A DNA stretch of 64,000 nt from assembly GCF_003334815.1 (NCBI RefSeq), contig NZ_QOWO01000003.1; one strand, written 5' to 3'. The notes under the pieces were generated by a model. It was not told the DNA's origin. It saw only the letters and a program-made list of their open reading frames with translations, and did no database searches. Origin of the DNA: Escherichia coli. GTDB lineage: Bacteria > Pseudomonadota > Gammaproteobacteria > Enterobacterales > Enterobacteriaceae. Positions 53,069 to 62,852 of this stretch are shown here, in pieces. The position numbers and the translations under genes were made by a program. Positions within the stretch are counted from its first letter, which is position 1. The number at the start of each line of letters is the position of its first letter.

Positions 53069-54040
53069 TTACTTAGCTGCCTGAATATCAGCCAGCATTG
53101 GGGCAAGGGCTGGGTTGTCCTTAGCGAAGTTTGCGTACATTGGCTGTACTTTCTCGATAAACGGAGCTTTATCTACCTGGTAGACTTTCACGCCCATTTT
53201 ATCCAGTTTTGCAAATTCTTGTTTCTCTTCCTCGCTCCACAAGTCTTTCATGTAGCTCATTGATTCTTTAGCTGCTTTTAATATAACTGCCTGATTTTCC
53301 TGGCTAAGTTTATCAAACGCAGCATTGCTCATCAGAACCACATCGGGAACCATAGTGTGTTCGTCAAGGCTGAAGGATTTTGCCACTTCACCGTGACGCA
53401 TGGTAGTCAGCGCCATCACGCTGTTTTCTGCCATATCGACCACACCCTGCTGTAAGGCTGTATACAACTCGCCGTAATCCAGTGGCGTCGGGTTACCGCC
53501 CATGACTTTGATCATTTCAACTGCGCCAGGGCTTGGCTGGACACGGACTTTCATGCCTTTCAGATCGTCTGGTTTCAGTACTGGTTTATTGCCATAGAAA
53601 CTGCGGGCGCCTCCATCATAAAAAGTCAGCCCGAAATAACCTTTGCTTTTCGTTGAGTCGAGGATTTTTCTCCCGATATCGCCCTGCATGACCTGATAAT
53701 AATGATCACGATCGCGGAACAAATAAGGCAGGCTAAATAATTTATAGGAATTTTCAAATGCTTCCATTTCTGCCGCATTGGTTTTTACCAGGGGAATAGC
53801 GCCAGAACGAATCAGCTCCATTGTTTCTCGTTGAGTACCCAATGTTCCATTTGGATAAATACGAATAGTAATATCACCGTTAGAGTACTCTTTGCTCTTT
53901 TTCGCAAAGAACTCCATCGCTTTATGAACAGGATGAGACTTATCCTGATTATGACTCAGTTTTAATGTCACTGCCCAGGACTGGCTTGCGGATAACATAA
54001 GAACAGCACCGATAATGCCAGCGGATACTTTTATTTTCAT
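53069..54040 (-). CDS. TRAP transporter periplasmic solute-binding protein (DctP family)
   Basis: 323-aa ORF with signal peptide (MKIKVSAGIIGAVLMLSASQSWA) and the LKLSHNQDKSHPVHKAMEFFAK N-terminal pattern typical of DctP-type binding proteins. Confidence 0.85.
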   Translation of the reverse strand: MKIKVSAGIIGAVLMLSASQSWAVTLKLSHNQDKSHPVHKAMEFFAKKSKEYSNGDITIRIYPNGTLGTQRETMELIRSGAIPLVKTNAAEMEAFENSYKLFSLPYLFRDRDHYYQVMQGDIGRKILDSTKSKGYFGLTFYDGGARSFYGNKPVLKPDDLKGMKVRVQPSPGAVEMIKVMGGNPTPLDYGELYTALQQGVVDMAENSVMALTTMRHGEVAKSFSLDEHTMVPDVVLMSNAAFDKLSQENQAVILKAAKESMSYMKDLWSEEEKQEFAKLDKMGVKVYQVDKAPFIEKVQPMYANFAKDNPALAPMLADIQAAK

Positions 54041-54092
54041 AGATGTTCCTTTTCTAATAAATATGGCGGCAGGTGCCGCCAGTGAATGCGCA

Positions 54093-55394
54093 TCAGTAGC
54101 CCAGTGCTCTTGGCAATGCCATACTGATTTGCGGAATATAGGTCACCATTGCCAGCACCAATACCATCACGGCATAGAATGGCAGCATAGGTTTGATAAT
54201 TTTATTAATCGGTAATTTAGATACACTACAACCGACAAATAACACACTGCCTACAGGCGGAGTACAAATACCGATACACATGTTCAGTACCATGACAATA
54301 CCAAAGTGAATCGGGTCCATGCCCAGTTCGGTGACAACCGGTAAAAATATCGGCGTAAAAATCAGTACCGCCGGTGTCATATCCATAAAAGTGCCGATAA
54401 TCAACAGGATAATATTGATAATAAGCAGGATTATTATTGGGTTGTCAGAAATAGTGTTAAGCAAATCGAGAATCAGGAAGGGAACGTCAGCGTTTGACAT
54501 TGCCCATGACATACCCATCGAAGAACCAATTAATAACAAGACAATTGCAGTGGTAATAACGGATTCCAGAAATATTTTAGGTAAATCTTTAACTGAGATT
54601 TCACGATAAAGAACCAGTGCAAGGAAAAGGGTATAAATTACTGCAATTGCGGAGGCCTCTGTCGGGGTAAAAATACCACTTAATACACCCCCCATAATTA
54701 AAATAATCAGGAAAATACTGGGGATAGCCATCCATATCGCAACGCCAGCCTGGCGTAAAGTCGGGCGTTCTGGCTTTGGATAACCGCGACGTACCGCGAT
54801 AATACCGGCTATTACCATCAGTGCCAGACCCAGCAAAATTCCCGGAACATAACCCGCCAGGAACAGTGCGGCAATAGAAGTACCACCACTGACCAGTGAA
54901 TAGACGATTAACGTATTACTTGGTGGAATAAGCAAACCCGTCGGGGCAGAGGCAACGTTAACCGCAGTACTGAATGCCGGGTCGTAACCCTCTTTAACCT
55001 GTTGCGGATGCATGACGCCGCCCATCGCAGCCGCCGAAGCCACGGCTGAACCAGAAATTGCCCCGAACAGCATATTGGCGAGAATATTACAGTGGGCAAG
55101 TGAGCCTGGCAGACGACCGCCGAGAATACGGGCAAAGTTGATTAATCGTCGCGCTATTCCTCCATGGTTCATAATGTTGCCAGACAAGATAAAAAATGGG
55201 ATTGCCAACAACGTAAAACTATCTAACCCGGAGGCTAACTTTTGGGAAACCACACTCAATGCTGAGTTGAAATCGAGTTGTGTGGAAATTGATGCCAGTG
55301 TCGATAAACCAATGGCATAAACAATAGGTACACCTAATGCCAACATAAAAAAGAAGGCACCAAATAACACAATAATCGGTAACCAGTAATCCAT
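54093..55394 (-). CDS. TRAP transporter large permease (DctM family)
   Basis: 433-aa polytopic membrane ORF downstream of the DctQ-like gene; AT-rich codon usage. Confidence 0.85.
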   Translation of the reverse strand: MDYWLPIIVLFGAFFFMLALGVPIVYAIGLSTLASISTQLDFNSALSVVSQKLASGLDSFTLLAIPFFILSGNIMNHGGIARRLINFARILGGRLPGSLAHCNILANMLFGAISGSAVASAAAMGGVMHPQQVKEGYDPAFSTAVNVASAPTGLLIPPSNTLIVYSLVSGGTSIAALFLAGYVPGILLGLALMVIAGIIAVRRGYPKPERPTLRQAGVAIWMAIPSIFLIILIMGGVLSGIFTPTEASAIAVIYTLFLALVLYREISVKDLPKIFLESVITTAIVLLLIGSSMGMSWAMSNADVPFLILDLLNTISDNPIIILLIINIILLIIGTFMDMTPAVLIFTPIFLPVVTELGMDPIHFGIVMVLNMCIGICTPPVGSVLFVGCSVSKLPINKIIKPMLPFYAVMVLVLAMVTYIPQISMALPRALGY

Positions 55395-55436
55395 AATTTC
55401 TCCATTCCTACTATGGTTGGTTGTTGTTTGTTATCT

Positions 55437-55937
55437 TTAGAGTGGTTGTTTAAGTTCGGTTAAAACCATATCTATGGTGTATATAATAATAAGTACACCA
55501 CTAATCGGGATGCTCATATAGATATATCCCATTTGCCAGCCTAAAGCGGGCGAGGTCTGACCTGAATCGAATGTATCCATCGTTAATAGCCCACCACCAT
55601 ATACCATAATGATGGTTGCGAAGATAATAACGATAATCTGAATACACAAAAATAAATGACGTCGGGCTTTTCCTTTCAGCATCATAGGTAGCAGGTCAAT
55701 CGCCAGATGCCGGTTTTGCCCTGCGGTGTATGCCCCACCAAAAAGTCCAAGACAAATAAAGAGCAAACGGCTGAGTTCATCTGTAAAAATACTGGGACTA
55801 GTAAATATAAATCGTGCAGCCACCTGCCACGTCACACATGCCACGATGATCGCCAAAATGGTAATGTTCAATGCTGCAAGCAGAGCATTAATAGATCTAA
55901 TTATATTTCGCATAGTGATTAACCTTTGCAATATCAT
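55437..55937 (-). CDS. TRAP transporter small permease (DctQ family)
   Basis: 166-aa four-helix membrane ORF; the ATG overlaps the upstream gene's TGA (ATGA); alternative start at 55913. Confidence 0.8.
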   Translation of the reverse strand: MILQRLITMRNIIRSINALLAALNITILAIIVACVTWQVAARFIFTSPSIFTDELSRLLFICLGLFGGAYTAGQNRHLAIDLLPMMLKGKARRHLFLCIQIIVIIFATIIMVYGGGLLTMDTFDSGQTSPALGWQMGYIYMSIPISGVLIIIYTIDMVLTELKQPL

Positions 55938-61992: not shown

Positions 61993-62060
61993 ACAATAGC
62001 TCTCTTTTTTTGAATATTGTTTTCTAAGTGACAATTAGCTTGCGACGTGCCGCAAGAAAG

Positions 62061-62082
62061 ATCAACCATCTGGTTGGTTGAT
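62061..62082. promoter_or_regulatory. Candidate TetR operator: perfect inverted repeat ATCAACCA-N6-TGGTTGAT
   Basis: 8-bp perfect inverted repeat in the divergent tetR / SDR intergenic region; a second palindrome GTGATCAC lies at 62091-62098. Confidence 0.4.
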
Positions 62083-62204
62083 ATGCGATAGTGATCACAG
62101 GACATTTGATAACTTGATGAAAGTACAAGTTTTTATCCTTTTTACTGGAGCTTCTAATTAATCGGGTTAAGATAGTTATCTTGAAGAGGTCGTGGGGAAG
62201 CGTT

Positions 62205-62852
62205 ATGTATCTTGATACCAGCAACGTACAGAGCCTGAAGGAAAAGCTGCTGTTATGCGCGGTTAATGAATTTGCCGAATATGGTTATGAAGGGGCCAGG
62301 GTCGATAATATTGTTAAGGCTGCGGGGTGTAGTAAACAGACGGTTTATCATCACTTTGGTAATAAAGAAAATTTATTTATTGAAGTACTGGAATATACCT
62401 GGAACGATATTCGACAAAAAGAAAAGGCCCTTGATTTCTCAGATTTTCCGCCACAAAAAGCCATTGAGAAAATTATTGATTTTACATGGGATTATTATAT
62501 TGCTAATCCCTGGTTTTTAAAAATTGTGCATAGTGAAAATCAAAGTAAAGGTGTGCATTATGCAAAATCACAGCGTCTCTTAGAAATTAACCATGCGCAC
62601 TTGCAGTTAATGGAATCCTTATTGGATGAAGGGAAGAAACACAATATTTTTAAGCCAGATATCGACCCATTGCAGGTGAATATTAATATTGCTGCGCTTG
62701 GCGGATATTATTTGATCAACCAGCATACGCTTGGCCTGGTTTATCATATCAGTATGGTTTCCCCCCAGGCACTGGAAGCCAGACGTAAGGTCATCAAAGA
62801 GACAATCCTTAGCTGGCTTTTGGTTGACCCTTCATCTACCGCGCACGAATAA
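62205..62852 (+). CDS. TetR-family transcriptional regulator
   Basis: 215-aa product from the ATG at 62205 (GGGGAAG SD); N-terminal HTH ([30 protein letters not shown]); AT-rich. Confidence 0.85.

Follow-up and report, generated by a model that had tools for sequence, protein, structure and literature searches.

Block-wise compositional mosaic with a cassette-like transporter slot in the catabolic locus between rplI and ytfB of Escherichia coli

It is established that transporters of catabolic operons can undergo non-orthologous displacement, and the amelioration of horizontally acquired DNA is likewise an established model. Hexuronate-type TRAP transporters with the DctP/Q/M architecture are found in Pasteurellaceae, Vibrionaceae, and Morganellaceae, where the P gene is divergent from QM and located beside classical uxu/uxa genes. 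A related set of TRAP genes was located in a stretch of 64,000 nucleotides of the Escherichia coli chromosome (contig NZ_QOWO01000003.1 of assembly GCF_003334815.1; hereafter the window), which extended from yjeJ to fklB. The genes belonged to a tightly packed minus-strand operon between rplI (52508–52957, plus strand) and ytfB (62836–63474, minus strand). From 5′ to 3′, the operon was composed of genes for a short-chain dehydrogenase/reductase (SDR), a TIM-barrel protein (SPI), a crotonase-family protein (ECH), a CoA-transferase (CoAT), a flavoprotein (FADox), and the TRAP subunits Q, M, and P, and a tetR gene was divergent from it on the plus strand. This interval was a real and well-delimited feature, namely an ancient catabolic locus of enterobacteria that is built as a mosaic of blocks and has a cassette-like slot for its transporter.

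When compared with the hexuronate-type systems, the TRAP genes of the window shared the DctP/Q/M architecture, with DctM and DctP 63–70% and 52–59% identical, respectively. However, they were arranged as Q–M–P in one direction at the end of an operon of CoA-dependent enzymes, and the cassette was 0.08–0.12 lower in GC content than its neighbours, an offset that was not present in the relatives. E. coli YdiF, an acyl-CoA:acetate/3-ketoacid CoA-transferase (PDB code 2ahu), has the same fused alpha/beta family-I organization and was aligned with CoAT over the full length. YdiF is a paralogue in a different operon, whereas the operon of the window contained an FAD_binding_2 flavoprotein instead of acyl-CoA dehydrogenase or electron transfer flavoprotein genes. 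The yjfZ–ytfA region of strain K-12 occupies the same rplI–ytfB interval, and its ytfA is the 3′ end of tetR; however, K-12 has lost the enzyme and transporter genes together with the 5′ part of tetR, and carries yjfZ. The locus resembled transporter displacement and amelioration in that TRAP and two unrelated MFS permeases (MFS-A and MFS-B) served one enzyme set and the swapped parts were compositionally atypical. It differed in that the exchange would proceed by homologous recombination at a fixed slot beside a ribosomal-protein operon, that one junction was intragenic, so that the last 80 residues of an enzyme travelled with the transporter, and that the same polymorphism recurred in several genera.

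GC content, GC per codon position, GC at the third codon position (GC3) expected from the amino-acid content, and the fit to synonymous codon usage were computed for each gene and compared with those of 49 core genes (≥300 nt) of the window. The core genes had a GC of 0.525 ± 0.035 and a GC3 of 0.571 ± 0.067. The sequence-only reading, made by eye, had described the TRAP and tetR genes as markedly AT-rich, and the computed values were in agreement, with GC of 0.394–0.445 and GC3 of 0.396–0.457. The GC z-scores of these genes against the core were −2.3 to −3.75, and at most two of the 49 core genes were equally low; the GC3 of TRAP_Q and tetR was below that of every core gene (0/49). The CoA-transferase and flavoprotein genes, which had been placed near or above the E. 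coli average, had GC of 0.531 and 0.524, respectively, with the exception of the FADox tail described below. As a group, the five enzymes did not differ from the core (Mann–Whitney p = 0.15), whereas a difference was found between the AT-rich block and both the enzymes (p = 0.008) and the core (p = 4e-5). The AT-rich genes thus stood out from the core genes, though the GC of TRAP_P and TRAP_M was strictly within the core range.

The low GC3 was not caused by hydrophobicity, because the deficit survived the amino-acid correction and membrane transporters among the core genes had high GC3 (ulaA, 0.685; mscM, 0.656). Observed minus expected GC3 was −0.11 to −0.215 for the TRAP genes, −0.16 for tetR, and −0.03 to −0.09 for the enzymes. 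Amino-acid or membrane-protein bias was therefore rejected as a cause, since the soluble binding protein and the TetR protein also shared the deficit. TTA accounted for 24–25% of the leucine codons in TRAP and tetR versus 11% in the core, and ATA occurred at 14 per 1000 in the TRAP genes versus 3. The frequent TTA and ATA codons noted by eye were therefore confirmed in TRAP, and in tetR for TTA only, because tetR contained no ATA codon. The dinucleotide delta* of the TRAP block was 107, whereas 500 core fragments of equal length averaged 48 and none reached 107; the enzyme block was ordinary with a delta* of 44.7. Atypical composition was limited to the block of TRAP and the FADox tail and to the tetR block, and the 5.75-kb enzyme block was ordinary. 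Elsewhere in the window, the core operon yjfI–yjfM (36533–39425) showed low and uneven GC (yjfI, 0.386; yjfL, 0.436; yjfK, 0.474; yjfM, 0.488), and compositional troughs were therefore not restricted to accessory DNA.

Unsupervised segmentation, blind to the gene coordinates, placed GC change points at 56233, 61986, and 62761. The left boundary was inside FADox (56233) and not at a gene border, and the last 80 codons of FADox had a GC3 of 0.284 versus 0.533 for the remainder. When TRAP-type and MFS-type genomes were compared, the identity was 58–60% over 55957–56157, 87% over 56157–56357, and 96–100% beyond. The identity step at ~56250 indicates that the 80 codons after the GGGSRGAR motif move with the transporter. 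On the other side, the homology of TRAP-type with MFS-type or K-12-type genomes ended at 53010–53018, just past the rplI terminator hairpin. The cassette including the FADox tail thus extended over ~53011–56240, with its right junction in FADox at ~56250. Of the three change points, two lay only tens of bases from a recombination limit and one lay ~120 nt away. The FADox tail belongs to the transporter cassette in both composition and history.

The distribution of the blocks within the species was surveyed in 5,426 complete E. coli genomes. The enzyme module was present in 3,115–3,153 genomes (~58%), the TRAP cassette in ~1,446 (~27%), and the K-12-type deletion in ~2,270; in ~1,685 genomes, the slot was occupied by an unrelated MFS permease. 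The 1,446 TRAP and 1,685 MFS genomes together made up the enzyme-module count. The TRAP cassette was near-monomorphic, with 1,405 E. coli genomes at least 99% identical, and the enzyme genes were more diverse. The K-12-type state retained yjfZ, the pseudogene ytfA, and a 102-nt SDR relic (81% identical; window 61802–61903). The ytfA pseudogene corresponded to the 3′ 402 nt of tetR (window 62450–62852; locus L004, 3194–3596) with ~98% identity. From ytfA and the SDR relic, it follows that K-12 lost the operon by deletion rather than never having had it.

When strain TCM3e1 was compared with the window, the TRAP block and tail showed 99.0–99.5% identity with a synonymous divergence (dS) of 0.02–0.03, the enzymes 94–95% identity with a dS of 0.18–0.28, and the intergenic region and tetR ~80–82% identity, with a dS of 1.05 for tetR. 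This block-wise divergence indicates three blocks with separate histories. Both properties of a mosaic operon were observed, namely non-homologous alternatives in one slot and sharp breakpoints with discordant divergence. In the 100%-identical reference, the rplI–ytfB interval had no annotated integrase, transposase, or tRNA, and no direct or inverted repeats were found flanking the cassette; site-specific insertion was rejected on these grounds. IS1 and IS609 insertions were sporadic and occurred in other strains only, and PADLOC gave no defence-system match.

The rplI-proximal end of the slot gathers further small insertions. In B2 strains, a HipA/HipB-type toxin–antitoxin pair was located between rplI and the MFS gene (strain UM146, locus L007, 1902–5755; locus L006, 1571–2365), and the MFS gene of UM146 was truncated at its 5′ end beside IS1. 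In other strains, yjfZ was located between rplI and the MFS gene. In addition, ~1,000 E. coli genomes contained another TRAP binding-protein gene at ~730–765 kb, in which 120–150 nt of TRAP_P were matched at ~79–81%; judging from this match, the gene represents a distant paralogous system that is absent from the window.

Through homologues of FADox, this gene set was also located between rplI and ytfB in other taxa. The slot was occupied by TRAP in Klebsiella sp. RHBSTW-00484 and in a high-GC enterobacterium (L095), and by MFS in Salmonella enterica, K. oxytoca, Citrobacter tructae, E. albertii, and a Klebsiella-like contig (L100). The MFS genes were of two types, only ~50% identical to each other. 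E. coli, E. albertii, C. tructae, the Klebsiella-like contig, and a Salmonella variant carried MFS-A, and MFS-B was present in Salmonella and K. oxytoca. One slot was therefore shared by three or more cassette types, each of them present in several genera. The low/normal/low GC pattern recurred in all these loci. The GC values of tetR, enzymes, and transporter were 0.44, 0.54–0.59, and 0.41–0.48 in the Klebsiella locus, 0.48, 0.62–0.65, and 0.51–0.56 in L095, and 0.41, 0.53–0.56, and 0.48 in Salmonella, respectively.

TRAP_M was 94.5% identical in amino acids to the orthologue of the Klebsiella locus. The dS between E. coli and Klebsiella was saturated for TRAP (>2.3), and was 1.2–1.95 for the enzymes and 0.9–1.1 for ulaE and ulaF; the intergeneric synonymous divergence of the locus was at least that of the neighbouring core genes. 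The saturated dS of TRAP indicates no recent transfer among the sampled genera, and a recent E. coli–Klebsiella transfer of this cassette was rejected. At this locus, the marks of a genomic island (mobility genes or repeats, absence from related species, and atypical composition throughout) were not found. Of the two origins proposed by the sequence-only reading, assembly from parts of different origin held in the sense of blocks with different histories, whose compositional breaks coincided with recombination limits, whereas horizontal acquisition of the whole operon was not supported, in view of the synteny in other genera and the deletion remnants.

In the Salmonella variant (L096, 5540–12004), no crotonase-type hydratase was encoded between SPI and CoAT, and a MaoC-type dehydratase gene followed the MFS gene. 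This change is a further non-orthologous replacement within the operon. The entire locus of this variant was unusually AT-rich (enzymes GC 0.47–0.51).

The SDR–tetR intergenic region contained the palindrome ATCAACCA-N6-TGGTTGAT (62061–62082; 8-6-8), which was kept at the same position in 10/10 loci from about five genera and with both tetR alleles. This palindrome is likely the TetR operator. The predicted tetR product fits the local repressor type, with an N-terminal helix-turn-helix, a gene divergent from the operon, and a candidate palindromic operator in the shared promoter; its TetR-type NCBIfam matches were weak. A second tetR allele (~82% identical) was found in 388/3,142 operon-bearing genomes, with block limits at ~61990 and ~62880, near the change points 61986 and 62761. 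This allele was equidistant (77–82%) from every sampled genus, and therefore came from an unsampled enterobacterial lineage. The tetR allele of the window was grouped with other Escherichia alleles (E. albertii, 90%), which indicates that its AT-richness is old and not a recent import. In some E. coli, a ytfB allele only ~70–80% identical to the usual one was located beside the second tetR allele (locus L098 of strain VTB97448v, 12884–13513, corresponding to window 62853–63474); in this strain, the recombination import reaches into the cell-division gene ytfB.

The mosaic probably represents an old catabolic locus of Enterobacteriaceae with an enzyme core of normal GC, an AT-rich tetR, and an exchangeable AT-rich uptake cassette; the AT-rich ends of the locus are likely from lower-GC donors. 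The locus would be fixed between the ribosomal-protein operon rpsF–priB–rpsR–rplI and ytfB, and would consist of three parts, namely the five-enzyme core, the divergent TetR repressor with its operator, and the uptake slot at the rplI end. The slot would accept a swappable cassette, either TRAP or an MFS permease of one of the two unrelated types, and each cassette would bring a distinct form of the final 80 FADox codons. Cassettes would pass between lineages by homologous recombination, for which near-invariant rplI with its terminator would be the first anchor and the GGGSRGAR-coding stretch of FADox the second, and recombination between divergent enterobacteria would replace everything between them. 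The genes rpsF–priB–rpsR–rplI were almost invariant between genera (dS 0.01–0.5), and the GGGSRGAR-coding stretch was the last well-conserved part of FADox. Recombination between two such anchors would account for the intragenic GC break, the near-monomorphic TRAP cassette of E. coli, and the sharing of cassette types across genera. The AT-rich blocks would most likely derive from lower-GC donors and would never have fully equilibrated, perhaps through repeated replacement. The closest TRAP relatives outside the locus were mostly from genomes of 33–46% GC (Pasteurellaceae, Vibrionaceae, Xenorhabdus/Photorhabdus, and Morganella). In 71 related gammaproteobacterial TRAP loci, the GC minus that of the surroundings was +0.001 ± 0.025; low GC is therefore not intrinsic to the TRAP family, and an intrinsically AT-rich family was rejected.

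Several observations weigh against this explanation. No donor of the TRAP cassette was found, with nothing above 70% amino-acid identity outside Escherichia in a pattern-based scan of one genome per species over 100,044 species; the scan was not exhaustive and missed the orthologue of Klebsiella sp. RHBSTW-00484, which was reached later through FADox. The GC3 of the cassette climbed with the host GC (0.40–0.46 in E. coli and 0.60–0.71 in L095) with a roughly constant offset to the enzymes, and a constant offset is equally expected, in the absence of any foreign origin, from a lower compositional equilibrium that results, for example, from weak expression or from selection for binding by H-NS. 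The tetR gene was as conserved across genera as the enzymes and travelled with its operator, and its AT-richness was not explained by recent import. The FADox tail was fast-evolving in all lineages (50–60% amino-acid identity between genera), so part of its AT-richness could reflect relaxed constraint. In addition, the pathway chemistry and the substrate are assigned from family membership only, and no enzyme reached an equivalog cut-off except for a generic SDR model. Two explanations thus remain for the AT-rich ends, namely a lower-GC foreign origin with incomplete or reset amelioration, and an intrinsic lower equilibrium.

In the latter explanation, which is possible but unlikely as an account of the whole feature, the transporter, the FADox tail, and tetR would be AT-rich by their own mutation–selection balance, possibly through a low level of expression, relaxed constraint, or selection for AT-rich DNA to which H-NS binds and thereby silences the operon, and the block recombination would be incidental. 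It agrees with the GC3 offset kept across hosts of ~50% to >60% GC, in which the blocks followed the host GC, and with the window tetR, which was vertically inherited within Escherichia and yet was the most AT-rich gene. The GC3 drop after GGGSRGAR was likewise present in every genus and with every cassette type, and undisputed core genes such as yjfI and yjfL were equally AT-rich. However, related TRAP systems were not AT-shifted from their genomes, the highly constrained TRAP_M had low GC3, the core membrane transporters ulaA and mscM were GC3-high, and the compositional change points matched the recombination limits.

It is improbable that the tail is co-inherited with the transporter through functional matching, such as substrate hand-over or docking, as part of an undescribed CoA-dependent route for hexuronate-like acids (or related acids from plants or the host) with a long-lived, cross-genus uptake polymorphism of TRAP, MFS-A, and MFS-B. 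Covariation of tail and transporter type was not convincing as a functional match, because the tail of the window was 52–61% identical to TRAP-linked and MFS-linked tails alike. One locus (L090) paired TRAP with an MFS-A-like FADox tail.

A recent acquisition of the entire 9.8-kb stretch as an accessory island, pre-assembled from different donors outside E. coli, is very improbable and was already largely refuted by synteny. The presence of the operon in only ~58% of the complete genomes, and of its TRAP version in ~27%, would be compatible with such an event, as would the atypical dinucleotide signature of the AT-rich blocks. On the other hand, four or more further genera shared the locus at this position with intergeneric dS of at least core-gene level, the enzymes were compositionally indistinguishable from the core, genomes without the operon bore the deletion scars, and integrase, tRNA, and flanking repeats were not found at the locus. 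Ordinary gene-to-gene scatter or amino-acid composition, to which the low GC1 and GC2 of the permeases, as membrane proteins should have, and the position of TRAP_P and TRAP_M within the core GC range (minimum 0.386) might point, was already refuted by the GC3 deficit after amino-acid conditioning and its presence in the soluble binding protein and TetR, by the rank, Mann–Whitney, and TRAP-block dinucleotide tests, and by the recovery of the blocks in segmentation without gene coordinates.

The features of the locus are listed in Table 1. Positions 52400–63600 of the window were 100% identical to several complete genomes, e.g. strain 190, from which 66 RefSeq gene calls were placed on the window; statistics were obtained for the 64 that mapped full-length.

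Table 1. Positions, composition, and assignment of the features between rplI and ytfB
Feature	Position	Strand	GC	GC3	Evidence
rplI terminator hairpin and left junction of the transporter cassette	52979–53018	+			12-bp stem at 52979–53005 (terminator scan)
TRAP_P, DctP-family substrate-binding protein with signal peptide	53069–54040	-	0.445	0.457	TIGR00787, 246.5 bits (cut-off 175)
TRAP_M, DctM large permease	54093–55394	-	0.445	0.442	TIGR00786, 458 bits (cut-off 268)
TRAP_Q, DctQ small permease	55437–55913	-	0.411	0.396	RefSeq call from strain 190; PF04290 on orthologues
FADox, 693-aa flavoprotein (tail and core below)	55934–58015	-	0.524	0.504
FADox 3′ tail, last 80 codons, after the conserved GGGSRGAR motif	55934–56240	-			Identity step and GC change point
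FADox core, FAD_binding_2, NadB/FrdA-like fold	56241–58015	-	0.541		PF00890 over residues 43–475
CoAT, fused family-I CoA-transferase, YdiF-like	58012–59553	-	0.531	0.539	PDB 2ahu, E = 1e-113
ECH, crotonase-family enoyl-CoA hydratase/isomerase	59563–60339	-	0.502	0.537	NCBIfam families, E ~1e-44, all below equivalog cut-offs
SPI, xylose-isomerase-like TIM-barrel (AP_endonuc_2)	60349–61191	-	0.547	0.566	PDB 3qc0/3ju2, E = 1e-84; PF01261 on orthologues
SDR, short-chain dehydrogenase/reductase, first gene of the operon	61201–61992	-	0.533	0.534	NF009386, 417 bits (cut-off 250)
Divergent promoter region with candidate TetR operator; start of the AT-rich regulator block	61993–62204	.			Sequence; GC change point 61986
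tetR, TetR/AcrR-family regulator (TetR_N and TetR_C_29)	62205–62852	+	0.394	0.398	RefSeq call; Pfam domains on orthologues

The TRAP set was complete, with P, Q, and M encoded together as three intact open reading frames. An alternative upstream ATG of TRAP_Q at 55937 (open reading frame 55437–55937) would overlap the stop codon of FADox, and the orthologues that matched PF04290 (DctQ) showed 91% (L090) and 76% (L088) identity with TRAP_Q of the window. The 52-nt gap between dctM and dctP contained a GC-rich hairpin followed by a T-rich tract (54064–54081, minus strand), which may be an internal attenuator or an mRNA stabiliser setting the ratio of binding protein to permease. The rplI terminator, with its symmetrical A-run and T-run, is probably bidirectional. 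A TTG-initiated open reading frame of 188 aa antisense to rplI (52481–53047, minus strand) is almost certainly not a gene. At the other end of the locus, the 3′ ends of tetR and ytfB overlapped by 17 nt. Further upstream, yjeM of strain 190 was aligned over 1466/1503 nt (window 10351–11816), and the GC fell to 0.44 at 10001–11000. The window and strain 190 were out of register upstream of ~52 kb, which indicates indels between them.

The transported compound is probably a hexuronate-like organic acid, as judged from homology and gene neighbourhood. The solved structures nearest to TRAP_P were 4OVR, 4X8R, and 4N8Y, of which 4X8R is bound to glucuronate and 4N8Y to galacturonate (PMC11668362). 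The closest TRAP relatives were located in clusters of uxaC, uxuA, uxuB-like, kdgK, and uxuR genes. MFS-A belonged to the anion:cation symporter group and was nearest to the D-galactonate-transporter subfamily, with a score below the family cut-off. Of the components of a possible beta-oxidation-like pathway, the operon encoded a CoA-transferase, a flavoprotein, a hydratase of the crotonase family (of the MaoC type in one variant), and an SDR; no thiolase was present, and the flavoprotein was not of the acyl-CoA dehydrogenase family. FADox gave no NCBIfam equivalog match, and the FadX-like NCBIfam match of CoAT scored below its cut-off. SPI was annotated as a 'sugar phosphate isomerase/epimerase', and PDB entries 3qc0/3ju2 represent SMc04130, an uncharacterised protein. 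Distant FADox homologues on short contigs, which give hints only, were located beside a PfkB kinase and LacI or in a TetR–SDR–FADox trio. No functional description of the operon, of yjfZ/ytfA, or of PDB entries 7VPF, 3JU2, and 3QC0 was found in the literature.

In the proposed pathway, TetR would repress the operon until a hexuronate-like acid is present, and TRAP or MFS would import the acid. The CoA-transferase would activate it, the flavoprotein, hydratase, and SDR would run a beta-oxidation-like sequence, and the TIM-barrel enzyme would carry out a sugar-type isomerisation or dehydration.

The locus exemplifies known processes, namely non-orthologous transporter displacement, interspecies homologous recombination, and persistent compositional heterogeneity. 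It provides a clean natural example of a transporter swap by homologous recombination, in which the anchors are a ribosomal-protein gene and a motif within an enzyme gene. It also cautions that AT-richness of genes in an 'accessory' operon need not signal a recent foreign origin, because the locus is old and syntenic and only its ends are exchangeable. The pathway itself is a more attractive lead than the mosaic composition. This uncharacterised pathway is present in over half of all E. coli strains and was lost from K-12 with the ytfA pseudogene left behind, and its likely substrate is narrowed to hexuronate-like acids, which is directly testable.

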